45,904 nt of DNA from Escherichia phage vB_EcoS_PTXU06: sequence record NC_073064.1. One strand, given 5' to 3'. Position 1 is the first letter of the stretch. Every line of letters begins with the position of its first letter. The translations under genes and the position numbers were made by a program. Of the stretch, positions 102-45,904 are shown one piece after another. Under the pieces are notes generated by a model. That model searched no databases, was not told where the DNA came from, and was given only the letters and a program-made list of their open reading frames with translations.

Positions 102-407
102 ATGAGAGCATTAATCTGGAATTACACAATGTCTGTGGCTAAGCTGTACGAAGCAAAACACACAAACGGCAACGCAGACGACGCGCGCCAGGCTGTCATC
201 CTGGCCCAGCAGGGAATCATGAACGCGTTAGACAATATGTTTGCCAGCCTGGACGAACTGGAGCCGCTGCGCGTGGCAATCTGCGAATATGCGATGGCAT
301 TTGCCCGTGAGCGCCTGGCTTATCGCTTCGGAATCGGCGAGACGGCAGTGACAAACGTCGCCAGGATTAAATCCCAGCGCGAACTATTCGCCCAGCTTGC
401 TAAATAA
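102..407 (+). CDS. hypothetical protein
   Basis: 101-aa ORF downstream of the candidate promoter; no recognisable motif. Confidence 0.5.
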   Translation: MRALIWNYTMSVAKLYEAKHTNGNADDARQAVILAQQGIMNALDNMFASLDELEPLRVAICEYAMAFARERLAYRFGIGETAVTNVARIKSQRELFAQLAK

Positions 408-416
408 GGGGTCAAA

Positions 417-686
417 ATGGGGCGTAGACGAGCAAAACAGCTTTCGTGGCGTATCCCACTGCATTGCATACGAATATGGGCTAAGAATGCGAATGCGGGG
501 GATTCTGTGTACTGGTGCTATCGCGACGACGTAAAGCCGTTGACGCAGACTCGCTACTTGCACCAGTTCGCAGCACAACACGATTTCAGGGTGCGGACTT
601 CCTTGCAACCAATGGGGATCCGTATTACATTACGCCGGAAGCCCGCCATTGAGCGGGTAGGCAAACACTGGAGACTGAGCAAATGA
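417..686 (+). CDS. hypothetical protein
   Basis: 89-aa ORF; AAGGGG Shine-Dalgarno-like sequence just upstream of the ATG; tightly packed with neighbours. Confidence 0.45.
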   Translation: MGRRRAKQLSWRIPLHCIRIWAKNANAGDSVYWCYRDDVKPLTQTRYLHQFAAQHDFRVRTSLQPMGIRITLRRKPAIERVGKHWRLSK

Positions 687-835
687 CACCAATGCAAAGA
701 GCACTAATGGCGGGATTCTCGCAGAAGTTTATTTCAGTAGACGCCTGCATAGCTGATTATGAGATGGACAGCATCGCTACGGTATGCGATGGCGACTATA
801 AGACTGTTGACGAGATTGAGGAGACTGAGCAATGA
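683..835 (+). CDS. small hypothetical protein (50 aa)
   Basis: Below the ORF-track cutoff; ATGA stop/start overlap with both the upstream (686) and downstream (832) genes suggests translational coupling. Confidence 0.3.
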   Translation: MTPMQRALMAGFSQKFISVDACIADYEMDSIATVCDGDYKTVDEIEETEQ

Positions 836-1386
836 GATTACTATTCCGCCGCAAATCAGACGGGCGCATACTGAAGCCGATCCAGACCCTGGATTCCTAC
901 GTCCGCTTGCACCACGCGGCAAGCGATCGGGTATTCCGCGCATCGAAGGGCACATTGCCGCAGTTCTTCGAAGTCCTCACACACGATATCGAGCGGGGCG
1001 ATGTTCTGCGTGATATTCGCGACGGGCAATTGTGGGTCGTGGAGCACACCCACCGGCACGGCTTGCGGTTGAAGTCCGGAATCTTGCTAAAGGGTATGAC
1101 GTACTTCGGGCTAATCAACTACGAGCGCGTGGGCCGCAAATACAGCCTTCGCGAACGCCATCCGCATGAGCGCGTTGAGTTCCGCAAGTCACAGCCAGCC
1201 TATGCGACCTACGACGCGAGCAAAGTGATGGACCCGGTCCGCCAGGCGACGCATGAGATTATTAATCGCTTCGATGCCGTGACGAACGCACAGCGCCATG
1301 CGCAGGAATACGGCGTTGGATTCATCCGTGTCGAACCAGACGGCAGCATGAATGCCATCGACCCGCGCTCGGTGATTCTGAAATGA
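832..1386 (+). CDS. hypothetical protein
   Basis: 184-aa ORF in the same-strand gene train; no recognisable motif. Confidence 0.55.
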   Translation: MRLLFRRKSDGRILKPIQTLDSYVRLHHAASDRVFRASKGTLPQFFEVLTHDIERGDVLRDIRDGQLWVVEHTHRHGLRLKSGILLKGMTYFGLINYERVGRKYSLRERHPHERVEFRKSQPAYATYDASKVMDPVRQATHEIINRFDAVTNAQRHAQEYGVGFIRVEPDGSMNAIDPRSVILK

Positions 1387-1523
1387 GTGCGTCTATCCGT
1401 GATATGCTGATGCACAACCGCTTTGAGATCGGCGGTCGGGTGTTTCGCAATTACTTCGTGGCGCGTGCCTGGGCGCGCCATATTGGCAAACCAGAGGGGG
1501 CAATACGATGCTACACGATTTGA
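1383..1523 (+). CDS. small hypothetical protein (46 aa)
   Basis: ATGA overlap with the preceding gene fills an otherwise empty 120-bp gap; weak support. Confidence 0.2.
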   Translation: MSASIRDMLMHNRFEIGGRVFRNYFVARAWARHIGKPEGAIRCYTI

Positions 1524-1795
1524 TATATTGGTTTGGATTGGCCAGTTGGCTATGCTTGGTCACGGCAGGGCTTGGCGCGATATGGGTATTCCTGCTTTGG
1601 CCCGCGGTAGAAGCCGCCAGCATTACCCGCATGACGTTCCAGATATACAAGCGCCGTGGCATCACTGAGCACCCTACCAGGTTGCGCATGTGGTGGCTAT
1701 GGTATCGGGATATGATAGGGGGCAGGATGTTCGAGGCCGTCAGGTCGAGTGGATGGGAGTGGAAAGGCGTCGGCAAGTGGTCCATTTTCGATTAA
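1508..1795 (+). CDS. small membrane protein
   Basis: 95 aa; strong RBS (AGAGGGGG) 7 nt upstream; hydrophobic N-terminal segment (WFGLASWLCLVTAGLGAIWVFLLW). Confidence 0.5.
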   Translation: MLHDLIYWFGLASWLCLVTAGLGAIWVFLLWPAVEAASITRMTFQIYKRRGITEHPTRLRMWWLWYRDMIGGRMFEAVRSSGWEWKGVGKWSIFD

Positions 1796-1812
1796 GTATG
1801 CAAGCGTGATAT

Positions 1813-1847
1813 AGTCCCAGTGAGATAAAACTTACTGGGACTTTTTT
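1813..1847 (+). terminator. rho-independent terminator
   Basis: Inverted repeat AGTCCCAGT / ACTGGGACT followed by TTTTTT. Confidence 0.55.
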
Positions 1848-2138
1848 ATGGATAAGCTAAACGAGTGGTTATTCGCCCTTGCGTGTCTGGCGGGCGGCTT
1901 CGTAGGCGCGCGCATTCACGGCGAGGCTACGAAAGGGCCGCTAAACTTCGTTTTATATATCGTAGTTGGCTTCCTGTGTGCCATATTTGGTGCGCCAGCT
2001 ATCGCCGAGTGGGCGGGCTTATCGGGCGAGCGCACTGTCGCCGGTTTGGGCTTCGTAACTGCAATCTTCTGGATGCCAATAGCCGCCCGGATCAGGGAGA
2101 CTATTGAGTCGTTCCGACTTCCGGGGGGCGCAAAATGA
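1848..2138 (+). CDS. putative holin (multi-TM membrane protein)
   Basis: 96 aa with 2-3 hydrophobic helices; two genes upstream of a lysozyme. Confidence 0.45.
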   Translation: MDKLNEWLFALACLAGGFVGARIHGEATKGPLNFVLYIVVGFLCAIFGAPAIAEWAGLSGERTVAGLGFVTAIFWMPIAARIRETIESFRLPGGAK

Positions 2139-2380
2139 TTATCTCCGTCCTGTTGTTTGTTATCATTGGGGCTTCGTCCCTGTTTAACGTGTATGCGCCG
2201 TCCGTCCAGGATGGCATTTTAGGCCGGGTGTTATATCTGCTAACGGCGATGATCTGCGTTATCGGATTGTTGCAAACGGGAGACGTATCAGACACCACCT
2301 GGACCGCGTTAATCTGGCTGTTTGCATTGCGCACGCTGCGTAATGCTGTTTTGAATGGGGTAAAACATGCGATTCAGTGA
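2135..2380 (+). CDS. small membrane protein (holin/antiholin-like)
   Basis: 81 aa, three hydrophobic segments; ATGA-coupled to the upstream gene; directly precedes the lysozyme. Confidence 0.4.
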   Translation: MIISVLLFVIIGASSLFNVYAPSVQDGILGRVLYLLTAMICVIGLLQTGDVSDTTWTALIWLFALRTLRNAVLNGVKHAIQ

Positions 2381-2858
2381 CAACGGTCTAAGATTTACGG
2401 CAGCATGGGAGCAATTCAGCCCAGTGCCGTATTTCGCGACTAAGAAAGAGCAGGCCCGCGGCCTGTATACCTGGGGCTATGGTCACACCGGCACTAATCC
2501 GCCGCGGAGCATTACCCGTGCGGAAGCACTGGAGCTACTCAAGCGCGACGTGGCGTATGCCGAAAACTGGGTGAACAAGTACGCACACCCGAGCATCAAT
2601 CAGGCGCAATTCGACGCGCTGGTGGACCTGGTTATCAATGCTGGTCCAGGTCCGATCATGCCGGACGACGTCGCGGGTGATTTCGACGATGCGATCCGCC
2701 TGGGTGACTGGGCGAAGGTCCGTGCTATTCTGCCACAGTTCCGCAAGCAAGGCGGGGAAGTGCTTAAGGGACTTGTCCGTCGAGCAATAGGCAGGCAAGC
2801 GCTATTCGATGGAAAGCAGTGGGACGTCGCCGAGAAGATCGGACGTAACGCAGCATAA
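2367..2858 (+). CDS. endolysin, lysozyme (GH24 / T4-lysozyme-like fold)
   Basis: 163 aa; WEQF...TWGYGHTG arrangement resembles the catalytic Glu and downstream TxGxGH region of phage lysozymes. Confidence 0.7.
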   Translation: MRFSDNGLRFTAAWEQFSPVPYFATKKEQARGLYTWGYGHTGTNPPRSITRAEALELLKRDVAYAENWVNKYAHPSINQAQFDALVDLVINAGPGPIMPDDVAGDFDDAIRLGDWAKVRAILPQFRKQGGEVLKGLVRRAIGRQALFDGKQWDVAEKIGRNAA

Positions 2859-2874
2859 TACGAGGGGACACAGT

Positions 2875-3288
2875 ATGTTAAAAAGTATTCTTGATCATAA
2901 CGCCGACGCGCTCGCCGCGCTGGCTAAAACCGAAGACCCCGGCGCACGCGCGATTGTAGCGGATACGATCAGCCATGCGGGGGTCTTCGACGCGAAGCTG
3001 CCTCGCCCGCCGGAAAGTAAGCCGGTGACAAGCGCCACCGTAACCATCACACCGGAATCCGCCGCAGTTGGTGCGAAGGCCACCGCTTCGGTTGAGGTCC
3101 AGCCACCCGACGCGACTAACAAGGCCGGGAAGTGGGTGTCGTCGAATCCCGCCTGCGCGGCAATCGATCAGACTACCGGCGAAATCACAGCCCAAACGGC
3201 GGGTAGCGCCCACATCTTTTGGGTGGCCTCAGATGGTAGCGGGGCGATGGCGTCCGCCATCTTCACCGTAACGGGGGCGGAAGAATAA
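2875..3288 (+). CDS. Ig-like (Big_2-type) domain protein
   Basis: Start taken at the ATG with GAGGGG RBS (the track ORF begins at 2809 inside the lysozyme); sequence TVTITPESAAVGAKATASVEV...WVSSNPACAAIDQTTGEITAQTAGSAHIFW resembles bacterial Ig-like group 2 domains. Confidence 0.45.
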   Translation: MLKSILDHNADALAALAKTEDPGARAIVADTISHAGVFDAKLPRPPESKPVTSATVTITPESAAVGAKATASVEVQPPDATNKAGKWVSSNPACAAIDQTTGEITAQTAGSAHIFWVASDGSGAMASAIFTVTGAEE

Positions 3289-3294
3289 ATCTAC

Positions 3295-3321
3295 AAGCCC
3301 GGTTAATTCCGGGCTTTTTAT
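3295..3321 (+). terminator. rho-independent terminator
   Basis: AAGCCCGG-TTAATT-CCGGGCTT hairpin followed by a T-run. Confidence 0.6.
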
Positions 3322-3324
3322 TGC

Positions 3325-3354
3325 TTGACTTGCAACCAACATAGAGGCCATACT
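3325..3354 (+). promoter_or_regulatory. candidate promoter (-35 TTGACT, 18-bp spacer, -10 CATACT) abutting a TGCAACCAA motif
   Basis: Read directly; sits between the terminator and the next gene block. Confidence 0.3.
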
Positions 3355-3384
3355 GCGACCAATCAACGAGAGGAGTATTACACT

Positions 3385-3465
3385 ATGGCACGTAATGATA
3401 TTTGGGTATTGGCAATCTGGTCCGCCGCGGGATTTATCGGTATGGTTATTTGCGAATTGCTATAA
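3385..3465 (+). CDS. small hydrophobic peptide (26 aa)
   Basis: Strong AGAGGAG RBS about 8 nt upstream of the ATG; peptide MARNDIWVLAIWSAAGFIGMVICELL is mostly one hydrophobic helix; below the ORF-track cutoff. Confidence 0.25.
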   Translation: MARNDIWVLAIWSAAGFIGMVICELL

Positions 3466-3517
3466 CCCGCCGCAATAGGGACCGTGGTATATTGTCCTCG
3501 GTCCCATAATCAGGAAG

Positions 3518-4669
3518 TTGATTAATATGCACCCGCAAACTAAAATCACCGACGAGCAATTGATCGCCGAGTTGCAATCCGGCACTACCGCGAAAGAGAT
3601 TGCGAAGAAGTACGGCCTTTCCCTACGAAACGTCTACATGCGCAAAGCCCGCCTGTCGAAGAAAGGTATTGGTCACGGCAACGATGCCGTAATCCGTAAG
3701 CGCGTTGCCGATGGCTTCGGCGTTAAGCGCGTATCCGCCCTGGTACGCGGCAATGGCGAAGAGGTCATGTCGTGGGTTATCACTGAGCAGGACAAAGAGC
3801 GCCAGCTTGAAGCAATGCGCGCCGTTGTCGATGGTATGAACAGCGAAATCACACCGGCAGCACCCGTAAGCGCCCCGCCAGTCCCGATCCAGGCGCTCGA
3901 CCTGCTCAACCTGTACACCGTGTCCGACTTCCACCTGGGCATGTTGGCCTGGGGCGAGGAGACTGGCGAAGACTGGGATATGGCGATTGCCGAAGACCTG
4001 TTCTACCGCTGGTTTGTCGAAGCCTTCGCACGCGCACCGGACGCAGGCACTGCCGTAATTAATATCCTCGGTGATATGGCACACTTTGATAGCCTCGATG
4101 CCGTCACACCTGCCAGCGGTCACGTACTGGACGCGGATACCCGCTACCAGAAGCTGGTCCGCTACATGATTCGCATGGTGCGCAACGTGGTGGAACTGGC
4201 GCTGCAAAAACACCACAAAGTCAAACTGCTAATCGTCCAGGGGAATCATGATGAGTCGGGCATGATTTGGCTGGCTGAAATGTTCAATACTCTGTACGAG
4301 AACGAGCCACGCGTCGAGGTGGACACATCCCCAGATGTGTACAAAATGGTGCAGCACGGTAAAACAACGCTGTTCTTCCACCACGGGCACAAAGCACGTT
4401 TTGACGCTATTGAAACCGTCATGATTTCCAAATTCAGACAAGCGTTCGGATCCAGCGAGTACAGCTACGCGCATGTAGGCCACTTGCACCACCAGAAGAT
4501 TGTAGAATCCCGCAACATGATTGTTGAACAGCACCGGACCCTCGCCGCGAAAGACGCATATGCCAGCCGCGGCGGTTGGATGTCCGGTCGTAGCGCCAAC
4601 GTAATCACCTATAGCGCCAACTACGGCGAAGTAGCGCGCTTAACCATTAGCCTGGAAATGTTGAAATGA
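3518..4669 (+). CDS. HTH domain + calcineurin-like metallophosphoesterase
   Basis: N-terminal HTH-like segment (TAKEIAKKYGLSLRNVYMRKARL); ordered phosphoesterase motifs DFH, GDMAHFD, GNHDE, HHGH, GHLHH. Confidence 0.6.
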   Translation: MINMHPQTKITDEQLIAELQSGTTAKEIAKKYGLSLRNVYMRKARLSKKGIGHGNDAVIRKRVADGFGVKRVSALVRGNGEEVMSWVITEQDKERQLEAMRAVVDGMNSEITPAAPVSAPPVPIQALDLLNLYTVSDFHLGMLAWGEETGEDWDMAIAEDLFYRWFVEAFARAPDAGTAVINILGDMAHFDSLDAVTPASGHVLDADTRYQKLVRYMIRMVRNVVELALQKHHKVKLLIVQGNHDESGMIWLAEMFNTLYENEPRVEVDTSPDVYKMVQHGKTTLFFHHGHKARFDAIETVMISKFRQAFGSSEYSYAHVGHLHHQKIVESRNMIVEQHRTLAAKDAYASRGGWMSGRSANVITYSANYGEVARLTISLEMLK

Positions 4670-4923
4670 TTAGACAAGTATTCATGAGCACGCAGGCCGC
4701 ACGCCTGAAAGAACTACGCAAACAACTGGAAGGATTGCGTCGATTCGAACGAACGGCAGCGGCAATCGGCATGTCTATCAGCGAGCGGATCGAGATACTA
4801 TCGCAAATACGCTACACAGAAGGCGCTATACGCGAAGTAGAAAGCATGTTAACCGATACTACGGTCGCGCCGTTTAACCCTCCTAGCCTGCCGATTTGGT
4901 GGGCTTTTTTGTGCCTGTTATAA
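4666..4923 (+). CDS. hypothetical protein
   Basis: 85 aa; ATGA overlap with the upstream gene. Confidence 0.45.
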   Translation: MIRQVFMSTQAARLKELRKQLEGLRRFERTAAAIGMSISERIEILSQIRYTEGAIREVESMLTDTTVAPFNPPSLPIWWAFLCLL

Positions 4924-4993
4924 TCCCCTTAGATGGCAGGGCCGTCTCCTATGTTGCCGATGGTCGGCGCATATGCACAAAAGGGCTTATATC

Positions 4994-5545
4994 ATGGCAG
5001 AAATTAAAGTTAAAGGCCGTCGCGCTAAACTGGACGGACGAGTAGCAGTTACCCCGCGCCGTAAACCAGGCGAGCAAACCGAGCATACCAATCTCGGACC
5101 TGAAATCGAGTACGGAAAGCGCCGTAAAGGCGGCAAATGTGGACGCCCTACTGACTACCGATCCGTTTACTGCGACCAGCTTCGCCGCTATTTTGCCGAC
5201 GCCGACGCCTGGCAGGTAAACTACTCCGATAAAGGCGCTGCGCAAGTAATCCCCCGCAACAAAATGCCAACCTTCGGTCGATTTGCCGCGGAAATCGGCG
5301 TGGGCGTAGCTTGCCTGTATCGCTGGGCGCGTGCGCATGAGGAGTTCGCCGAGGCGATGGCGGACGCTATGGAGTTGCAGAAAACTTTCCTGATGGAAGC
5401 TGGCGGCGTGACCATCGCGGCGGGCTTCGCTACCTTCCTGCTTAAAGCCAACCACGGCGTCCGGGACGACGTACCGCTGGATGACGACGAAGATGATAAC
5501 GGCGACGTCGTTGTGGAACCTACCGGCAAAGGCCAGGGTGATTAA
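4994..5545 (+). CDS. putative terminase small subunit
   Basis: Immediately upstream of and overlapping the large terminase; basic N-terminus; start at 4994 has the better RBS (track start 4973). Confidence 0.5.
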   Translation: MAEIKVKGRRAKLDGRVAVTPRRKPGEQTEHTNLGPEIEYGKRRKGGKCGRPTDYRSVYCDQLRRYFADADAWQVNYSDKGAAQVIPRNKMPTFGRFAAEIGVGVACLYRWARAHEEFAEAMADAMELQKTFLMEAGGVTIAAGFATFLLKANHGVRDDVPLDDDEDDNGDVVVEPTGKGQGD

Positions 5546-6930
5546 TGCGTAACTATGCGGCAGAACATCGCGCCCTTGAACGAGCGATCGCAAAGCGAAA
5601 CCGACCGCCGCGCCCGACACGCGTTGCGCAGGCCGTCCGCCTTTACCAGCCTGATTGCTTGCCGCACCAGGTTGAACTACTGCGCGACACGAAGACTAAA
5701 ATCCTCGGCCTGTGTTCCGGCTTCGGTGGCGGCAAGTCATGGGTTGCGGCGCGAAAGGTCATCCAGCTTTTAACACTGAACCCCGGTCATGATGGCATCG
5801 TGACAGAACCGACTATTCCACTTCTGGTCAAAATCATGTACCCGGAATTGGAAAAGGCATTCGACGAGGCGGGCTTCCGGTGGAAGTTCAATAAGCAGGA
5901 CAAGATTTATAGCGTGCTGGTGAAAGGCAAGTGGACGCGCGTAATCTGTGAGTCAATGGAGAACTACACCCGCCTTATCGGGGTTAACGCCGCATGGATT
6001 GTTGCCGACGAGTTCGACACCACGAAACAAGACGTCGCAATGGCGGCATATCACAAATTGCTTGGTCGTCTGCGTGCGGGCTTTGTCCGCCAGTTCGTCA
6101 TCGTGTCCACGCCTGAAGGCTTCCGGGCGATGTACCAGATTTTCGAAGTGGAGAAAGACAGCCAGAAGCGTTTGATCCGGGCGAAGACTACCGATAATCA
6201 CCACTTACCGGCAGACTTTATTGACACGCTGCGCAGCCAGTACCCGGCTAACCTGATTGACGCGTACTTGAACGGCCTGTTTGTAAACCTTACGTCTGGC
6301 GCGGTTTACAAGATGTTCAATCGTGAGGAGAACGCCAGCACCGAAGAAGTGCAACCGGACGACACGCTGATTATCGGTATGGACTTTAACGTCACGAAAA
6401 TGGCGGCGGTTGTGTACGTCAGACGGCAGCGCATCACCGAGAACAAGGAGTTCCGCGACGAGATCCACGCAGTGGATGAATTTGTGGACCTGTTTGATAC
6501 CCCGGCTATGATTGAGGCGATCGAGGAGCGCTACCCCGATCATTGTGCTGCCGGTAGGGTCGTCGTTTACCCGGATAGCAGCGGAAAATCCCGCAAAACG
6601 GTCAACGCGTCGTCGTCCGATATCGCGCAACTGGAAGATGCGGGCTTTGAGGTGGAATACGACAGCGTTAACCCGCCTGTGAAAGATCGATTGATCGCGA
6701 TGAATACGATGATGTGCAACTCGAAGGGCGTGCGCCAGTATTTTGTCAACCTGGATAAATGCCCTACACTAGCGAAATGTCTGGAACAGCAGGTTTACGA
6801 CCTGAAGAAAGGCGAGCCGGATAAAACCGCCGGTGTGGACCACATGAACGATGCCGCGGGCTATCCAATTGCGCACCTGTTCCCAGTGATTCGCCCAATC
6901 GCCGTTGTTCCAACTGTAGACTTCTACTAA
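5545..6930 (+). CDS. terminase large subunit
   Basis: 461 aa; P-loop GFGGGKS, Walker-B-like WIVADEFD, C-terminal nuclease-like acidic residues; followed by portal. Confidence 0.85.
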   Translation: MRNYAAEHRALERAIAKRNRPPRPTRVAQAVRLYQPDCLPHQVELLRDTKTKILGLCSGFGGGKSWVAARKVIQLLTLNPGHDGIVTEPTIPLLVKIMYPELEKAFDEAGFRWKFNKQDKIYSVLVKGKWTRVICESMENYTRLIGVNAAWIVADEFDTTKQDVAMAAYHKLLGRLRAGFVRQFVIVSTPEGFRAMYQIFEVEKDSQKRLIRAKTTDNHHLPADFIDTLRSQYPANLIDAYLNGLFVNLTSGAVYKMFNREENASTEEVQPDDTLIIGMDFNVTKMAAVVYVRRQRITENKEFRDEIHAVDEFVDLFDTPAMIEAIEERYPDHCAAGRVVVYPDSSGKSRKTVNASSSDIAQLEDAGFEVEYDSVNPPVKDRLIAMNTMMCNSKGVRQYFVNLDKCPTLAKCLEQQVYDLKKGEPDKTAGVDHMNDAAGYPIAHLFPVIRPIAVVPTVDFY

Positions 6931-16844: not shown

Positions 16845-17160
16845 TGAAGCGGGACGTCCCGCTTTGTCCCGCCCTGTAAAACCGCATATCTAATCACTTT
16901 CATTGCATAAACTCAAAGCGGGACAGGCGGGACGTCCCGTTTTGTCCCACCACGCAAATGCGCATACCTATGCAGTTTTATTGCATAAAGTAAGCGGGAC
17001 AGAAAGCGGGACAGACAAGGGGCGGGACAAAGTGGGACAGCACCCCGTCCCCGCCAGTGCTGCCGCGGTTTTCAGCCGATCGGGACAGGCGGGACAAACC
17101 CCAGTCTTTCAGACTAGACGGGGGTCAGCGGTCCCCCTCGTCTGAGACTGAATAAGGTTT
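16845..17160. repeat. iteron cluster A: about 14 GCGGGACA boxes in both orientations plus a long imperfect palindrome
   Basis: Read directly; 374-bp non-coding gap between the chaperone stop and the tape-measure start; homologous to 45606-45790. Confidence 0.8.
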
Positions 17161-31985: not shown

Positions 31986-32303
31986 TTACGCATAAAAATT
32001 CGGGTCGCGCGCGACGTCTACCAGATACAGGTTGCTGATTCGGTTGCCGTAGTGGCCTGGTGTTCGCTGGCGGCACACAACGGCGTAGCCTGGAGGAATT
32101 GTATTGCCGGTCGCGATAATCCACGCCACGCGTGCGCCCGATAGAGTTTTGCCGTTGCATTCGATGCGCGTGCCGCCATCGGCGGTATTGAGGTTGCCAA
32201 TTTTGCAGCCGGTGGACTTCAGACGAATGACGCCGGTTTTGCTGTCGTAGGAGAATAACTGGTTAGTCATTGCAACCGAAAAATCGATGGCTTCGAATGT
32301 CAT
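31986..32303 (-). CDS. HNH_3-like (homing-endonuclease-like) protein, possibly degenerate
   Basis: 105 aa; ARVAWIIATG and GNRISNLYLV resemble HNH_3 proteins but the canonical D-H is replaced (VCRQ); ATGA-coupled to the upstream methyltransferase-like gene. Confidence 0.4.
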   Translation of the reverse strand: MTFEAIDFSVAMTNQLFSYDSKTGVIRLKSTGCKIGNLNTADGGTRIECNGKTLSGARVAWIIATGNTIPPGYAVVCRQRTPGHYGNRISNLYLVDVARDPNFYA

Positions 32304-32995
32304 TTTAAATTTTCCTCGTTAACCGCTATCGCGAAGCCGCGCGGAGTGAGCGACCTGATTAATTTGGTGCGGGCAGATTTGCCTCCGAGGCGACTATACT
32401 GCTTCGAGTACCCTTTTTCAACGAATACAGGCTTTTTCTCTGGCATACGGAAGCCGTTGCCGGTCCATAAGCAGGTCAGCTTCGGATATGAATCACGGGC
32501 GTTGATGTATTCAGGGAATAGCGGGTGCACGTCATCCTCCGGCAAATAGCCGCCATACTCCCACGGGTCAAACGAGTGGTCAGGCTTACGCCATTGAGTG
32601 GAGAGCACGCTGCGCGGGTTCTCAATCAGATACGGCACTTCAAAGAAATCACCCAGGTAAGCGGCGATCTTCGCGGTGCGTACCGCCTTAAGCTGGAAGG
32701 CAGGGTCGCTGGCGCGTTTGCGCGGGAAAGCTGGCGCACCGCTAACCGCCAGATCCGTACACGGCGGGAATGCATAAATGATGTCCGGCGTGCCGAAATC
32801 ACCATTCATCGCACGGTCCACGAAGTCCAGATCGATAAACTCATTGCGATACCGGATTCCGCGACCATAAATCCGGTAGTCAAGGTAAGACCCGTGATCG
32901 GCTTCGGAGTAGTTGAAGCAATAACACTTATGCCCCATCTCGGCAGCACGCTCAATCATCAAGCCGCTGCCGTCGAACAATGACCAGATTATCAT
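32300..32995 (-). CDS. putative DNA (cytosine-5)-methyltransferase-like protein, copy 1
   Basis: 231 aa; LFDGSG (motif I-like), FPPC (motif IV-like catalytic Cys), LIENP (motif VI-like); unusually short for a C5 methyltransferase. Confidence 0.5.
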   Translation of the reverse strand: MIIWSLFDGSGLMIERAAEMGHKCYCFNYSEADHGSYLDYRIYGRGIRYRNEFIDLDFVDRAMNGDFGTPDIIYAFPPCTDLAVSGAPAFPRKRASDPAFQLKAVRTAKIAAYLGDFFEVPYLIENPRSVLSTQWRKPDHSFDPWEYGGYLPEDDVHPLFPEYINARDSYPKLTCLWTGNGFRMPEKKPVFVEKGYSKQYSRLGGKSARTKLIRSLTPRGFAIAVNEENLK

Positions 32996-33168
32996 TTGCG
33001 CGCCTTTTTAGCTTTCATGTATTCCATTAAATCATCCTGAATATCGCGCTTACTGTCGCGACGCTCGGCGACCAGTTCGTCCAGCGTCCCGCGAGCCTGG
33101 ATAATGTAGACGAATACGGGTCGAGGGTGTCCTGCTTGCATCTGGCGAACCGGCCCGATACGTTCAAC
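32992..33168 (-). pseudogene. duplicated 3' fragment of the helicase gene (last ~58 codons)
   Basis: Identical to 34056-34232; the 90-aa track ORF here is a junction chimera of the helicase C-terminus with out-of-frame sequence. Confidence 0.6.
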
Positions 33169-33367
33169 TGCCGGTCGCGATAATCCACGCCACGCGTGCG
33201 CCCGATAGAGTTTTGCCGTTGCATTCGATGCGCGTGCCGCCATCGGCGGTATTGAGGTTGCCAATTTTGCAGCCGGTGGACTTCAGACGAATGACGCCGG
33301 TTTTGCTGTCGTAGGAGAATAACTGGTTAGTCATTGCAACCGAAAAATCGATGGCTTCGAATGTCAT
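33169..33367 (-). pseudogene. truncated 5' copy of the HNH-like gene
   Basis: First ~64 codons identical to 31986-32303, then broken at the duplication junction. Confidence 0.55.
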
Positions 33368-34059
33368 TTTAAATTTTCCTCGTTAACCGCTATCGCGAAG
33401 CCGCGCGGAGTGAGCGACCTGATTAATTTGGTGCGGGCAGATTTGCCTCCGAGGCGACTATACTGCTTCGAGTACCCTTTTTCAACGAATACAGGCTTTT
33501 TCTCTGGCATACGGAAGCCGTTGCCGGTCCATAAGCAGGTCAGCTTCGGATATGAATCACGGGCGTTGATGTATTCAGGGAATAGCGGGTGCACGTCATC
33601 CTCCGGCAAATAGCCGCCATACTCCCACGGGTCAAACGAGTGGTCAGGCTTACGCCATTGAGTGGAGAGCACGCTGCGCGGGTTCTCAATCAGATACGGC
33701 ACTTCAAAGAAATCACCCAGGTAAGCGGCGATCTTCGCGGTGCGTACCGCCTTAAGCTGGAAGGCAGGGTCGCTGGCGCGTTTGCGCGGGAAAGCTGGCG
33801 CACCGCTAACCGCCAGATCCGTACACGGCGGGAATGCATAAATGATGTCCGGCGTGCCGAAATCACCATTCATCGCACGGTCCACGAAGTCCAGATCGAT
33901 AAACTCATTGCGATACCGGATTCCGCGACCATAAATCCGGTAGTCAAGGTAAGACCCGTGATCGGCTTCGGAGTAGTTGAAGCAATAACACTTATGCCCC
34001 ATCTCGGCAGCACGCTCAATCATCAAGCCGCTGCCGTCGAACAATGACCAGATTATCAT
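33364..34059 (-). CDS. putative DNA (cytosine-5)-methyltransferase-like protein, copy 2
   Basis: Translation identical to copy 1. Confidence 0.5.
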   Translation of the reverse strand: MIIWSLFDGSGLMIERAAEMGHKCYCFNYSEADHGSYLDYRIYGRGIRYRNEFIDLDFVDRAMNGDFGTPDIIYAFPPCTDLAVSGAPAFPRKRASDPAFQLKAVRTAKIAAYLGDFFEVPYLIENPRSVLSTQWRKPDHSFDPWEYGGYLPEDDVHPLFPEYINARDSYPKLTCLWTGNGFRMPEKKPVFVEKGYSKQYSRLGGKSARTKLIRSLTPRGFAIAVNEENLK

Positions 34060-35480
34060 TTGCGCGCCTTTTTAGCTTTCATGTATTCCATTAAATCATC
34101 CTGAATATCGCGCTTACTGTCGCGACGCTCGGCGACCAGTTCGTCCAGCGTCCCGCGAGCCTGGATAATGTAGACGAATACGGGTCGAGGGTGTCCTGCT
34201 TGCATCTGGCGAACCGGCCCGATACGTTCAACGATCTGCGAAAAGTGCTCAAAGTTCCAGGTATCGGAGAAGATTGCCAGGTGATGACCGCCGTCCTGCA
34301 AGTTAAGGCCGTGGCCCGCCGATGCCGGGTGTGCAAACATGATGGGGATCTCGCCTCTGTTCCACGCCTCCATATCCTTATTGCCCTGCTTACCTTTACC
34401 CAACGCAACGCCGTGCGGAAATTTCTTCTTAAGACGTGCCAGGTCATGCTTATACTGATACGCAACGAGCAACGGCGCGCCGTTCAACTCCTCCACGATA
34501 CTTTCCAGCGCGTCCAGCTTCGCGTCGTGAATCTTCACCCACTCGTCGGTCCGTTCGCCGTCTTCGTCGACTTTATACACAGCCCCCGAAGCAAGCTGAA
34601 GGCACTTAATAGTCTTCGATGCAGCGTTCGCCGCCTCCACAGTTCCGCTTTCCAGTTCCGCAAATAACTCCGCTTCGAACTGGTCATAAATCTTGCGGGC
34701 TTTCTTCGGCAGGTCCACAACAACCGGCGTATATATTGGCTTGTCGCATCCGAAGTATTCCGCCGCGTCAACGGTTAGCGACACGTCGGACAGGCGTTGT
34801 TGGATCTCTTTCTCGGAGTTCTTAAGCGGGGCGTGCTGCATAGAGAAGCTGCCAGGCTTAACAGGCTTGCTAATGAACCAGCGATCGGTAAATGCCTTAT
34901 AGCTACTGCCGAGGCGTTCGCCACCGTCGACAAACCACGTTTGCCCCCACAGATCTTTCAAGCCATTTGGCGCTGGTGTGCCGGTAAGGTTAATCCAGCG
35001 CTTGACGTGCTTATGTGCGATCGCCGCCAGTGCGCGTGCGCGCTTACTACCCTGCTTACTTCGGTAGCCTTTCAGCTTAGTGGATTCATCGGCAACAACC
35101 ACCGTAAAGGGCCACGCATCGCCGTAATAGTCGACCAGCCACTCAACCACATCGTAGTTAACACAAACCACGTTAGCGTCGCTCTCAAGCGCGGCAATAC
35201 GGTCCTTCTCCGGTCCGGTGCCGTCTACGACCAGCAGGGATGAGAACCGCCATTTCTCCTGTTCCGGGGGCCATGTACCCGACGCAACACGCAGCGGGGC
35301 CAGCACCAGTACGCGGTCCTCATGATGGGACAGGATGCCAGTCTGGAACATTTTGTTCAGCGCCCACATTGTCGCGCCGGTTTTACCCGACCCCATTGTC
35401 GCCCAGATATTGCATCGCTTATGCTTGAGGATGAACGCGGTAATCAACTTCTGATATTCGCGGCGTCGGAATCGTGCCAT
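34056..35480 (-). CDS. SNF2/DEAD-like helicase
   Basis: Walker A GSGKTG, DExx box VVADEST, C-terminal helicase motif QIVERIGPVRQ; start taken at ATG 35480 (MARFRRR); the track ORF extends to a GTG at 35570 overlapping the upstream gene. Confidence 0.8.
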   Translation of the reverse strand: MARFRRREYQKLITAFILKHKRCNIWATMGSGKTGATMWALNKMFQTGILSHHEDRVLVLAPLRVASGTWPPEQEKWRFSSLLVVDGTGPEKDRIAALESDANVVCVNYDVVEWLVDYYGDAWPFTVVVADESTKLKGYRSKQGSKRARALAAIAHKHVKRWINLTGTPAPNGLKDLWGQTWFVDGGERLGSSYKAFTDRWFISKPVKPGSFSMQHAPLKNSEKEIQQRLSDVSLTVDAAEYFGCDKPIYTPVVVDLPKKARKIYDQFEAELFAELESGTVEAANAASKTIKCLQLASGAVYKVDEDGERTDEWVKIHDAKLDALESIVEELNGAPLLVAYQYKHDLARLKKKFPHGVALGKGKQGNKDMEAWNRGEIPIMFAHPASAGHGLNLQDGGHHLAIFSDTWNFEHFSQIVERIGPVRQMQAGHPRPVFVYIIQARGTLDELVAERRDSKRDIQDDLMEYMKAKKARK

Positions 35481-43206: not shown

Positions 43207-45471
43207 ATGAGCTTAATTAAATTCGCTGTAACACGACCCGCTAAAAAAGGCGAAAAAGCCAGGGCGGAAAACTTCCAGATGACTACCGAAGAGTTTTTCG
43301 AATTTATCAATGATGCGAAAGAAATATCCTCGGTGCATATCAACAAGACGGAAGATAAAGCGGAGTATGCGCGCCGCAAGCGTAAGGCCGATGGCATTGT
43401 GGCTTATACCAGTGATGGGCTGCGCCGCAAGACCAGTGCGGTGGACCGCTCGATCCTGTTCTTTGATATTGACCGCACCGACACCCGCACCCTGCGCCGC
43501 TGCCGTAAGGCGTTCATCGACGCGGGTCTGGAACACGTATTTCACACCACCACCGGCGACCGCCACCCGCTGAAGGGCGGCACGCGTTGCGCCCGTTTCC
43601 TGGTGCTCACTGACAAGCCTGTACCGGCTGAAGACCTGGGCCGCGTCCAGTATGCACTATTACACCAACTGGGTCTGTCAGATGTGGACTTCGACGATTG
43701 CACGAAAGACACAAACCGCCTGATGTACCTGCCACACCAGCAGTCCGTTATTAAGTGCCACTATGGCAAGCGCGCCAATGTGCGTCGACTACTCCGTCTG
43801 GCGGACAAGCTGGGGGTGGAAAAAGAGGAAGTACGCCGCGAGCTTACCCAGGGCGACGACGCAGTGGCAGACGGCATTCTGGACTGGTGCTTCCAGGCAG
43901 GATTCGAGGAGTTATCTTCCGGTCGCGGTTATGAAGTGCCGTGCCCGAACGAACATCTGCACAGCGGCGAAGGGTCGACGGCTATCATGGTCAAGGATGG
44001 CGAGATCCGTTTCAAGTGTATGCACACCGGCAACGAGTGTTGCTCGGAGCTAAATAGACACCAGCACCTTGCGCTACGTCTTATCGGGATACCGGACCAC
44101 CTGAACGTCGAGCCGCACAACATGTCCCGTAAGCAAATCGCCGCCATCCTTCCGGGACTGGACGACGAGGAAGTCGAATCCTTATATGAACATATTGTTG
44201 ATGCGGTTGGCGACGGCGAAGAATACGGCGTGTGCACCGATGCGGATCTGGATAACGAGCCGGTTGCGCTGTTCAGCAAGCACGACCCGATTATCGAGGG
44301 GTTGGTTAACTTTAAATCAACCTGGTATATGGCGGGTGAGTCGAACATCGGTAAGTCTTTCTACGTGCTGGGGCAAATGGGTGCGGTTGCCGCGGGGATT
44401 CCGTTCGGTGGCGCGAAGGTCGTCCAGTCCCATTGCTTCTATTTCGACGCGGAAGGTGGCGAAGCCTCCAACCAGCGTAAGGAAGCATTGCAGATCAAAT
44501 ATGAGCACGACCTGGACAAGCTGCACATTATTGACCTGCAATCACGCGGCTGGGATATCACCAGCAAGTCGGGCTTGCGCGAAGTTATCAGCTTTATAAA
44601 CCGCACCGCTAACGGCGAACCGGTTGGCCTGGTAGCTTTCGACTCACTCAACCAGACTGTTGCGCTGCGGTCCGCCGATGCTAAACCGTTTGACGAGAAC
44701 AACGCCAGCGATATGGGTGAAGTGGTCAAGGCGCTGAAGGCCATTGCGGAAAATACAGGCGGCAGTGCGGGCGTCATCCACCACCCGGCTAAAGGTGCAA
44801 ACGGAAGCAGATCCCCCCGCGGGTCCGGCGCGCTGCATGGCGCTGTCGATTCTGCGTTCTTCCTGGAACAGCCGGACGACAACCAGCCGGGACAACTTAA
44901 CCTGTATCACGAAAAGGCACGTAACGGCATCAAGCAAGCGCCGCGCGGCTTCGTCCTGCTCAAGTGCAAGGTTAAGGTGGATCTCCGCAAGTCCGAGGCG
45001 TTCGAAGCCCACCAGTCCACCAGCACCGGGCCGGACTTCGGTGATGTGGTCGCCGGTTGGGACGTCAAGCCGATTGCCTCCACGCCTCGCGACGAGACTC
45101 TGTACCTCGTACCGGTCGCCCTGGCACCGTTCGCCATCGAACAGGCGAAGGCCGCGGGCAAGGCAGCAGTTAAGGAAGAGAACGCCGCGGGACCGCGCAA
45201 CGAAAAAGAGAAAGTGCTTTATGCGGCACTGGAAAAACTGATGGAAGATAACCCGGACCATACCGGATTCAGTAAATCGGCAATTGTCCGCCAGGCTGGG
45301 CTTGCGAAAGGTGGCACATCGACGAAGGCAATCGACGATATGGTCGAGCGCGGCGTACTCGGTTTTTACACAGACCCACACACCGGGGCCATCTATGGGT
45401 CGTCGAATATCGTCATCAAAACGAATATACCCATCACGCTTTCGGCGACAGATGACGACTTAAAAGATTAA
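43207..45471 (+). CDS. primase-helicase (N-terminal primase-like domain, C-terminal P-loop helicase-like domain)
   Basis: 754 aa; central Cys/His cluster (CPNEHLHSGEG...CMHTGNECC); Walker A GESNIGKS and Walker-B-like LVAFDSLNQT. Confidence 0.75.
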   Translation: MSLIKFAVTRPAKKGEKARAENFQMTTEEFFEFINDAKEISSVHINKTEDKAEYARRKRKADGIVAYTSDGLRRKTSAVDRSILFFDIDRTDTRTLRRCRKAFIDAGLEHVFHTTTGDRHPLKGGTRCARFLVLTDKPVPAEDLGRVQYALLHQLGLSDVDFDDCTKDTNRLMYLPHQQSVIKCHYGKRANVRRLLRLADKLGVEKEEVRRELTQGDDAVADGILDWCFQAGFEELSSGRGYEVPCPNEHLHSGEGSTAIMVKDGEIRFKCMHTGNECCSELNRHQHLALRLIGIPDHLNVEPHNMSRKQIAAILPGLDDEEVESLYEHIVDAVGDGEEYGVCTDADLDNEPVALFSKHDPIIEGLVNFKSTWYMAGESNIGKSFYVLGQMGAVAAGIPFGGAKVVQSHCFYFDAEGGEASNQRKEALQIKYEHDLDKLHIIDLQSRGWDITSKSGLREVISFINRTANGEPVGLVAFDSLNQTVALRSADAKPFDENNASDMGEVVKALKAIAENTGGSAGVIHHPAKGANGSRSPRGSGALHGAVDSAFFLEQPDDNQPGQLNLYHEKARNGIKQAPRGFVLLKCKVKVDLRKSEAFEAHQSTSTGPDFGDVVAGWDVKPIASTPRDETLYLVPVALAPFAIEQAKAAGKAAVKEENAAGPRNEKEKVLYAALEKLMEDNPDHTGFSKSAIVRQAGLAKGGTSTKAIDDMVERGVLGFYTDPHTGAIYGSSNIVIKTNIPITLSATDDDLKD

Positions 45472-45546
45472 ATTTTGCGCGCATTGGTTGCCGATATGGG
45501 AATTCCCATATCGCCAAAAGATTAAATTTTGCGCGCATTGGTTGCC
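45462..45546. repeat. two 31-bp direct repeats flanking a perfect 20-bp palindrome
   Basis: AAAAGATTAAATTTTGCGCGCATTGGTTGCC at 45462-45492 and 45516-45546; GATATGGGAATTCCCATATC at 45493-45512. Confidence 0.85.
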
Positions 45547-45605
45547 ATTTTGGGTGTTTTTATCCGGTCGTATTGGTTGCCGTGTAATGTAAATATAGTG
45601 AATAG

Positions 45606-45790
45606 TTATGCAGTTTTATTGCATAAACTAAGCGGGACAAAAAGCGGGACAGCCAAGGGGCGGGACAAAGCGGGACAGCACCCCCGTCCCGCCCCGGATG
45701 GCGCGGCCTAGAGAGGAGCGGGACAGCGGGACAGCACCCCAGTCTTTCAGACTAGACGGGGGTCAACGGCCCCCCTCGTCTGAGACTGCA
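45606..45790. repeat. iteron cluster B: about 8 GCGGGACA boxes plus a long imperfect palindrome
   Basis: Roughly 85% identical by eye to 16967-17150, with small indels. Confidence 0.8.
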
Positions 45791-45904
45791 TAAAATCCGG
45801 GGATTGCAAAATACACGGCAGCATGATGCGAAGTGCGGTCGCGGATGAACTAGGCAACCAATGCGAGTTGTATTATGCGGAGTGAAAAACGCGGTTTGCA
45901 GATT

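Follow-up and report, generated by a model that had tools for sequence, protein, structure and literature searches.

What does a phage gain from a protein that joins a helix-turn-helix (HTH) segment to a complete metallophosphoesterase (MPE) domain? The question is raised by the plus-strand gene of such a protein, here called the HTH-MPE gene, in the genome of Escherichia phage vB_EcoS_PTXU06 (NC_073064.1), analysed as one window of 45,904 nucleotides. An earlier sequence-only reading of the same DNA had offered three functions for the product, namely an Mre11/SbcD-like nuclease, a protein phosphatase, or a DNA-binding regulator with enzymatic activity. The answer preferred here, held with a little less than even confidence, is that the protein is an HTH-tethered, Rad50-independent DNase resembling the A1 protein of phage T5 and acting most plausibly on host DNA. 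The gene is a member of a catalogued and very widespread phage family, PHROG 704, and its novelty at the level of the sequence family is low.

The window protein matches the PHROG 704 profile, labelled 'DNA repair exonuclease', with an E-value of 9.4e-161 (residues 5-380 against profile positions 2-390 of 390). The order of HTH, beta-hairpin module, proline-rich linker and MPE domain is uniform among the diverse members aligned, which comprised 30 representatives 32-47% identical to the window protein and 55 further relatives and from which conservation across the family was judged. The claim made from the letters alone, that an HTH is fused to a full calcineurin-like phosphoesterase, is correct: the motifs D134-F-H136, G182-D183-M-A-H186, G239-N240-H241-D242, H285-H286-G287-H288 and G318-H319-L-H321 occur once each and in canonical order, and the HTH is solid at family level. 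D134, H136, D183, N240, H241, H286, G287, G318 and H321 are invariant, H186, D188, H285, H288 and H319 nearly so, and the MPE domain carries two family-specific blocks, TPxSGHxLDADxR (194-206) and EQHRTLAxxDAYASRGGW (334-351). The beta-hairpin module likewise has a family-wide consensus, VPDGFxVKGxSTLYxxDGxxxxQWVK. Within the window protein alone the HTH is weak, falling below threshold (Pfam HTH_28 E 0.01 and GerE E 0.018, residues 5-48); across family members it is recognised as Sigma70_r4_2 (down to 1.5e-9) and GerE (2.4e-8) as well as HTH_1, HTH_8 and HTH_50, and the family profile finds GerE (E 0.0045) and NarL/VraR-type DNA-binding domains in the PDB. These matches suggest an HTH of DNA-binding type, and the N terminus is basic (computed isoelectric point 10.2, residues 1-58). 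Between the Dhillonvirus protein and those of Jersey- and Kaguna-type phages, identity is 84-86% in the MPE domain and 52-72% in the N-terminal 117 residues, indicating that selection bears hardest on the enzyme.

Profile searches and structure prediction had been proposed as checks on the phosphoesterase domain. The former found the PHROG family over its full length and the Pfam metallophosphoesterase models, but the scores of Metallophos and Metallophos_2 (PF00149 and PF12850) lay under their gathering thresholds (20.0 bits versus 21.5, and 22.3 versus 27), which points to a family divergent at the sequence level. The MPE-only profile matched nothing among PDB sequences, NCBIfam and PADLOC searches of the window protein gave nothing useful, and designed armadillo repeats, the only PDB sequence match of the single protein, were dismissed as spurious. 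An AlphaFold2 model built on the 55-sequence alignment (mean predicted local distance difference test score 81, predicted template modelling score 0.70) bears out the predicted fold, with three N-terminal helices (residues 9-17, 22-29 and 33-45), a beta hairpin (strands 64-73 and 79-88) followed by a helix (90-105), a low-confidence linker, and an alpha/beta sandwich of MPE type in which each catalytic motif follows a beta strand, at its C-terminal end; an insert at 189-203 is disordered.

T5 A1, to which this architecture was compared, is described as a 'predicted metallo-phosphatase' with structural features of double-strand-break repair nucleases and of polymerase proofreading subunits, and has been reported to be both necessary and sufficient in vivo for the degradation of host DNA (10.64898/2026.04.02.716235). 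The A1 family (PHROG 1745, 'DNA transfer protein') occurs in 1,135 phage records, and since many of its members carry an N-terminal homeodomain-like HTH (HTH_23, HTH_38, CENP-B-N) and are annotated 'homeodomain-like protein', A1 too is an HTH plus MPE protein. Comparison of single sequences aligns only the neighbourhood of motif III (A1 ESNHDLALSRWL, PHROG 704 EGNHDxASSIWLRE), and hhalign against single T5 A1 and T5 A2 sequences similarly returned fragments around that motif only. Local hhalign comparison of family profiles, built from 55 PHROG 704 and 42 A1 sequences, paired the two HTHs with a probability of 83% (E 9e-6, 62 columns) and the two MPE domains with one of 60% (E 8.6e-5, ~215 columns), the latter alignment keeping collinear order from motif III via HGH and GHxH up to a common C-terminal ...(V/I)ITY strand; as a negative control, both window domains gave 0.1-0.2% against the middle domain of A1. 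Homology of the window protein with A1 is suggested by these profiles, not proven, and the relation of PHROG 704 to A1 is probably one of distant homology, or at least of the same design, rather than of membership.

The preferred reading is further supported by the company that these genes keep. T5 Dmp, a 5'-deoxynucleoside monophosphate (5'-dNMP) phosphatase encoded two genes from A1 (L093, 124-858), falls in PHROG 415 (E 3.6e-57), as does gp27 of phage Era103 (L007, 6175-6669; E 6.2e-58), which is encoded directly 3' of that phage's HTH-MPE gene and has only the HAD_PNKP phosphatase domain in Pfam. Because PHROG 415 contains T5 Dmp and such phosphatase-only proteins, its label 'polynucleotide kinase', which spreads via Pharokka-type annotation, is misleading. 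Local phmmer adds at least 12 IMG/VR loci of several lineages in which a Dmp-type gene lies directly 3' of the HTH-MPE gene, and A1-bearing phages have a like neighbour, dmp in AhSzq-1 and a 'polynucleotide kinase' in Vibrio phage D332, so that genomic linkage to a Dmp-type phosphatase is seen in members of both the PHROG 704 and A1 families, though not in the window. Among Drexlerviridae lacking SH3, the commonest genes after the HTH-MPE gene are those for a 'polynucleotide kinase' and a dNMP kinase (PMC13164509). Repeated coupling to enzymes with dNMP substrates is as expected if the MPE domain makes dNMPs from DNA. Two preprints on defence systems are relevant in a circumstantial way; in one of them, m6-dAMP set free from degraded host DNA triggers a system that restricts the T1-like phage Bas12. 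The idea that neighbours of 150-190 aa might be kinases was rejected, their Pfam matches being the HAD_PNKP phosphatase, HNH, GH108 or nothing. The A1/Dmp parallel was not found in the literature searched.

As an A1-like DNase, the protein would bind DNA through its basic N-terminal HTH, probably aided by the beta-hairpin module, while the C-terminal MPE domain, as a binuclear-metal phosphodiesterase, would hydrolyse phosphodiester bonds. The metal-ligand set would be that of Mre11/SbcD (D134, H136, D183, N240, H286/H288, H319 and H321), with H186 and H241 at the phosphate. During infection, host chromosomal DNA would be broken down to mononucleotides, the role proposed for T5 A1, and in many relatives the neighbouring enzymes would dephosphorylate (Dmp-type phosphatase) or recycle (nucleotide kinases) these products. 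The gene would be transcribed as a short unit of its own from the conserved extended -10-like element TGGTATATT and would form no part of the packaging machinery.

Several observations weigh against this proposal. HTHs of the LuxR/sigma-4 type are usually sequence-specific, which is odd for a bulk DNase, and the model leaves the sparing of the phage's own DNA unexplained. Placed between lysis and packaging genes on the late-gene strand, the gene is outside any obvious early region, and no Dmp homologue is encoded in the window. The window protein has no PHROG 1745 match at E <=0.01, where A1 homologues score 1e-145 to 1e-244; the hhalign similarity to A1 (60-83%) is weak, the part of the MPE alignment that spans motifs I and II is unreliable, and the 200-aa middle domain of A1 is absent. 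The evidence for DNA degradation by T5 A1 is itself from in vivo work (10.64898/2026.04.02.716235), and the literature searched yielded no experimental work on the function of PHROG 704.

DNA methyltransferase genes occur near HTH-MPE or A1-like genes in the unrelated phages CcrPW, JLBYU07 and RcIroh and in the lambdoid contig L002, the methyltransferase gene of CcrPW overlapping the A1-like gene, and this proximity may hint that methylation shields the phage's own DNA from the enzyme. A broader proposal, possible though somewhat unlikely in its entirety, is that PHROG 704 comprises compact T5 A1 relatives that serve T1-like, Dhillon-, Jersey- and Kaguna-type siphophages and some podophages as a single-polypeptide, Rad50-independent, Mre11-like DNase degrading the host chromosome. 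The sigma-4/LuxR-type HTH, perhaps together with methylation of phage DNA, would steer the enzyme to host DNA and off phage DNA, and the released dNMPs would feed the Dmp-type and kinase neighbours and could trigger the m6-dAMP-sensing systems Metis and PUA-Cal-HAD.

Of the three functions first suggested, the nuclease is favoured, on motif variants and on the distant similarity to A1, but membership of the Mre11/SbcD family itself does not hold. The variants DxHLG, GDxxH and GNHD lean towards a nuclease: the family's (S/T)D(F/Y)HLG resembles the SDWHLG of SbcD, GNHD is common to both, and the GDLFH of Mre11 is similar to the family's GD(F/M)xH. No Mre11/SbcD profile of Pfam or NCBIfam matched, however, the best PDB match to SbcD with the full-family profile, which otherwise retrieved HTH proteins only, had an E-value of 0.63, and hhalign against the single E. 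coli SbcD sequence gave a probability of 2.6%, with fragments around motif III only. Together with the lack of a capping domain and of Rad50/SbcC, this places the protein outside the Mre11/SbcD family. No Rad50/SbcC is encoded in the window, where every ORF (open reading frame) of at least 360 aa has another function (terminase, portal, head/tail protein, helicase, polymerase, PHROG 69 exonuclease or primase-helicase), nor does it figure among the 25 commonest upstream or downstream neighbour families of relatives at 32 loci.

These absences bear on the view that the enzyme is an Mre11-like exonuclease of recombination, repair or replication working on phage DNA, its substrates being the ends or hairpins of replicating or concatemeric molecules. 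The PHROG label, itself a homology-based guess, agrees with such a role; Mre11, SbcD and DP1 are among the structural neighbours, the Era103 copy lies among exonuclease, endonuclease VII and ligase genes, and DNA polymerase, single-strand DNA-binding protein and exonuclease genes are found near copies in other phages. Yet the genome already has a recombination set consisting of a PHROG 69 exonuclease, a Gp2.5-like annealing protein and a VRR-NUC nuclease, the Rad50/SbcC partner and the capping domain are missing, and linkage to dNMP-handling enzymes suits bulk degradation better. A role on phage DNA is accordingly judged to be clearly unlikely.

Foldseek ranked archaeal Mre11 first in the PDB (E 4e-8), followed by PolD DP1, LpxH, YfcE, Rv0805 and GpdQ; in BFVD it retrieved family members and viral proteins either unnamed or labelled 'DNA polymerase II small subunit', and T5 A1 was not recognised there. 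The PDB ranking places the MPE domain in the phosphodiesterase/nuclease branch and so counts against a Ser/Thr/Tyr protein phosphatase of the lambda NinI (lambda-PP) kind, a function that we consider barely probable. It has in its favour that the MPE superfamily is shared with lambda NinI and the PPP family, that the gene of lambdoid relatives lies in the nin region, and that the Ent2 and S104 records read 'putative serine/threonine protein phosphatase'; the PPP hallmarks GDxxDRG and GNHE and the PPP fold are absent from the window protein. In the lambdoid contig L005, the nin region includes an HTH-MPE gene and, in a NinI-like position, a second Metallophos gene of 174 aa (5105-5629), and these two phosphoesterases are probably not redundant.

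The modelled fold alone cannot part a nuclease from a small-molecule phosphodiesterase. An enzyme of the latter kind, acting on cyclic or linear defence signalling nucleotides, Ap4A-type molecules or 2',3'-cyclic phosphates as an anti-defence or metabolic accessory, would leave the conserved HTH of DNA-binding type unexplained. It also sits poorly with motif variants of nuclease type, with the lack of a PADLOC match, and with the standing of the gene as a persistent core component of whole phage families instead of a sporadic accessory, and is regarded as improbable.

The extent of the family was established by several searches. A word-indexed search returned 3,873 relatives, the closest being those of Dhillonvirus (94-97% identical), with Jerseyvirus/Kagunavirus-type Salmonella and E. 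coli phages at 75-82%; other Dhillonviruses also have homologues of 97-99% identity. An exhaustive search of 50%-identity representatives gave 4,684 clusters at E <=1e-3 and 1,138 at <=1e-30, nearly all of 370-420 aa and full-length, and tblastn placed the family in 2,061 phage records, its remote matches in Campylobacter and jumbo phages leaving the N-terminal HTH region uncovered. Hosts of the gene include Drexlerviridae (T1-like), Webervirus, the SP6-like Erwinia podophage Era103, whose copy is annotated 'similar to p16 of phage T1', N4-like vibriophages, Rhodobacter Casjensviridae and metagenomic phages.

Across these phages, the position of the gene varies widely. In Drexlerviridae its upstream neighbours are helicase, nuclease and Dam methylase genes and its downstream ones those for holin, endolysin and spanin, an arrangement in which a 2026 pangenome study found it persistent in 508 of 522 genomes (PMC13164509). 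Kagunavirus Bas74 carries it together with a small ORF as an inverted-orientation cassette in the tail module, by a superinfection-immunity moron. In Era103 it stands between the genes for endonuclease VII and the HAD phosphatase, and in an N4-like vibriophage it follows RNAP2, while in lambdoid metagenomic contigs it is placed either between the nin and the lysis genes or between the lysis and the Nu1/GpA terminase genes. At 32 non-redundant IMG/VR loci, no neighbour family accounts for more than four of the ~120 neighbours per side, the recurrent ones being HNH, Q-like antiterminators (3), endolysin/holin, nucleotide kinases (4), DNA polymerase, single-strand DNA-binding protein and exonuclease. 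So variable a context argues for a self-contained function that travels alone, making a role in packaging and one as a general late activator both unlikely.

The link with the terminase that the sequence-only reading had implied is thereby left without support, and the closeness to the terminase genes is incidental. An accessory nuclease helping the terminase to cut, in the manner of the HNH proteins encoded beside the terminase genes of cos phages, might be suspected from the site of the gene just upstream of the terminase genes in the window and in contig L002. That adjacency is not conserved in the lysis, tail, DNA-metabolism and RNAP2 settings just described, however, and no terminase family is among the 25 commonest up- or downstream neighbour families at the 32 loci. 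The large terminase, moreover, has an RNaseH-like nuclease domain of its own, and in the window the 85-aa ORF and a second terminator intervene between the HTH-MPE gene and the small terminase gene, with no direct abutment. A packaging role is considered very improbable.

Since terminators flank both sides, the HTH-MPE gene and the 85-aa ORF form a short unit of their own, apart from the lysis and terminase genes. The upstream terminator, claimed from sequence, is real, with a folding energy of -15 kcal/mol (z -3.9) that none of 200 shuffles equalled, and its hairpin is also found in the relatives L014 and L015. The sigma-70-like promoter candidate that follows it does exist but is not conserved among Dhillonviruses, occurring in the window and in phage Zar3M and missing from the relatives L013-L015, and its function is doubtful for that reason. 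Between the terminator and the HTH-MPE gene also lies a 25-codon ORF, kept in Zar3M and L013 and replaced or absent in L014 and L015.

Next to the gene, the sequence CCGTG(G/A)TATATTG, which includes TGGTATATT, is kept in all five aligned Dhillonvirus sequences, and the arms of the inverted repeat around it in three of the five. The element and the repeat probably serve the HTH-MPE gene as its own promoter or operator, and the repeat may be an operator, conceivably for autoregulation by the protein's own HTH, or a hairpin in the 5' untranslated region. As an operator for this HTH throughout the family, the palindrome was considered and rejected, given its single occurrence in the 45.9-kb window and its lack of generality; no equivalent was seen 5' of homologues in other genera.

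Overlap of this unique palindrome with the gene's own -10-like element is one of the points in favour of a transcription regulator, a late-gene activator or autoregulator in which the HTH would be functional and the enzyme domain modulating or secondary. Others are the sigma-region-4/LuxR type of the HTH, the lambda-Q-like position after nin genes and before lysis in some lambdoid contigs, and the place of the Drexlerviridae copy ahead of the lysis cassette. Relatives occur, however, in SP6-like and N4-like phages with their own RNA polymerases, a Q-like antiterminator is also present downstream in three loci, the catalytic residues do not vary and conservation is lower in the HTH, and the palindrome is neither repeated in the genome nor fully kept among Dhillonviruses. 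The option of a DNA-binding regulator, if taken as a pure regulator, is therefore unlikely, and quite improbable as the answer for this locus.

The window approximates a complete Dhillonvirus genome, that of an E. coli siphophage, and shares its coordinates with vB_EcoS_Zar3M (45,901 bp; megablast); 160 phage records matched positions 3200-5600, nearly all of them from Dhillonvirus siphophages of Escherichia and 90-96% identical (megablast). The plus strand carries, in order, holin-like ORFs, the lysozyme gene, the Ig-like Big_2 gene, the HTH-MPE gene, the 85-aa ORF, and the genes for the small terminase (P22 gp3/Sf6-like), the large terminase (Terminase_6N/6C) and the portal. The Big_2 gene is the last of the lysis cassette, directly 5' of the terminator, an odd site for an Ig-domain protein. 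The open frame 3518..4669, described as a 383-aa ORF, is confirmed as a real gene, but the length needs correction: TTG 3518 is merely the first possible start codon, and translation probably begins at ATG 3527, for a product of 380 aa, because AGGAAG lies 8 nt upstream, close homologues all begin MHPQTK.../M..KITDEQ, and Zar3M is annotated at 3527-4669. The 85-aa ORF encodes a Dhillonvirus-specific small protein co-transcribed with the HTH-MPE gene and has no homology to the small ORFs 3' of relatives in other genera, so that it does not count as a conserved partner. Translational coupling to a conserved partner was rejected in general, the stop-overlapping small ORFs in five lineages being mutually unrelated. 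The features discussed are collected in Table 1.

Table 1. Positions of features in and around the HTH-MPE gene (window numbering), followed by loci of relatives (numbering of each locus)
Feature	Position	Strand	Details
Lysozyme gene	2367-2858	+	
Ig-like Big_2 protein gene	2872-3288	+	
Intrinsic terminator after the lysis/Ig-like block	3295..3316	+	8-bp GC-rich stem, T-run
Sigma-70-like promoter candidate	3325..3354	+	TTGACT-18-CATACT; 9/12 consensus match
25-codon ORF, putative coding	3389..3466	+	hydrophobic peptide MARNDIWVLAIWSAAGFIGMVICELL; GAGGAG ribosome-binding site upstream; unannotated
Perfect 7-bp inverted repeat	3478..3505	+	GGGACCG-N14-CGGTCCC; encloses extended -10-like TGGTATATT (3485-3493)
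Shine-Dalgarno AGGAAG	3513..3518	+	8 nt 5' of ATG 3527
HTH-MPE coding sequence, 380 aa (likely start)	3527..4669	+	PHROG 704; PHROG match, homologues, Zar3M annotation
HTH, LuxR/GerE/sigma-70-region-4 type	3527..3670	+	residues 1-48; Pfam, PDB profile, model helices
Beta-hairpin + helix module, then Pro-rich linker	3701..3841	+	residues 59-105; from model; G77, W83 invariant
MPE catalytic domain	3887..4666	+	residues 121-380; motifs I-VI
85-aa ORF	4666..4923	+	PHROG 20931, E 2.3e-42; ATGA overlap with HTH-MPE stop codon
Terminator-like hairpin before small terminase	4885..4905	+	9-bp stem, T-run; -12.2 kcal/mol, z -2.3
Small terminase gene	4973/4994-5545	+	
Methyltransferase-proximal locus, CcrPW	L098 1-395 / 385-2172		
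Methyltransferase-proximal locus, JLBYU07	L006 3441-4166		
Methyltransferase-proximal locus, RcIroh	L008 6544-7827		
Methyltransferase-proximal locus, contig L002	L002 489-1727		
Dmp-linked loci			group with 74-75% identical MPE protein; L043/L047; L048; L056

Elsewhere in the window, a tandem direct duplication of ~1,064 bp (32105-34100) carries a DNA methyltransferase gene, present as two 231-aa ORFs on the minus strand (32300-32995 and 33364-34059), with several repeat families each showing a 1,064-nt spacing; both copies in Zar3M match PHROG 757 with identical scores. Two intergenic regions (16849-17155 and 45602-45793) share a 192-nt repeat of 84% identity, holding tandem 63-nt units and GC-rich hairpin-forming motifs (GTCCCGCTTTGTCCCGCCC and its complement), which could serve in regulation or as terminators. 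Close to the right end, just past the primase-helicase gene, AAAAGATTAAATTTTGCGCGCATTGGTTGCC occurs twice, 54 nt apart (45462-45554), and weaker copies of it lie at the ends of the duplicated methyltransferase genes.

The gene is part of the near-universal core of several of the most commonly isolated groups of coliphages, Salmonella phages and Klebsiella phages, many therapy candidates included, and its annotation is inconsistent, as exonuclease, phosphatase, regulator or oxidoreductase; GenBank names range over putative phosphoesterase, calcineurin-like phosphoesterase, wHTH domain protein, HTH luxR-type protein and Ser/Thr phosphatase. Should the product prove to be a host-DNA-degrading enzyme, this would explain host takeover and nucleotide salvage in these phages and show where the mononucleotide danger signals detected by recently described defence systems come from. 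The parallel with A1 and Dmp is directly testable.

Set beside known systems, the window protein differs from Mre11/SbcD (E. coli SbcD, archaeal and eukaryotic Mre11, T4 gp47) in lacking the capping domain, ending 59 residues past motif VI, in having a compact core with 46 residues between motifs III and IV compared with 101 in SbcD, and in carrying the family's own insert between motifs II and III. It is 13-18% identical to PolD DP1, the archaeal 3'-5' proofreading exonuclease, and to MJ0936/YfcE-type phosphodiesterases; DP1, unlike the window protein, has OB and other domains and works inside a polymerase, while MJ0936 and YfcE are without a DNA-binding domain and have only artificial phosphodiesters as known substrates. 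A1, at ~550 aa, has a ~200-aa domain between HTH and MPE (T5 A1 residues ~95-295) where the window protein has only the 47-residue hairpin module, its motif II reads HD in place of GD, and in first-step DNA transfer it works with a separate DNA-binding protein, A2, that has no counterpart in the window. What the window family and A1 have in common is an N-terminal HTH and a C-terminal MPE domain in the same order, the segments NHDxAxSxWL and GHxH...ITY, and the lack of a Rad50-type partner, and if the A1-like reading is true, the two would together define a class of Mre11-like nucleases that uses a built-in HTH instead of Rad50.

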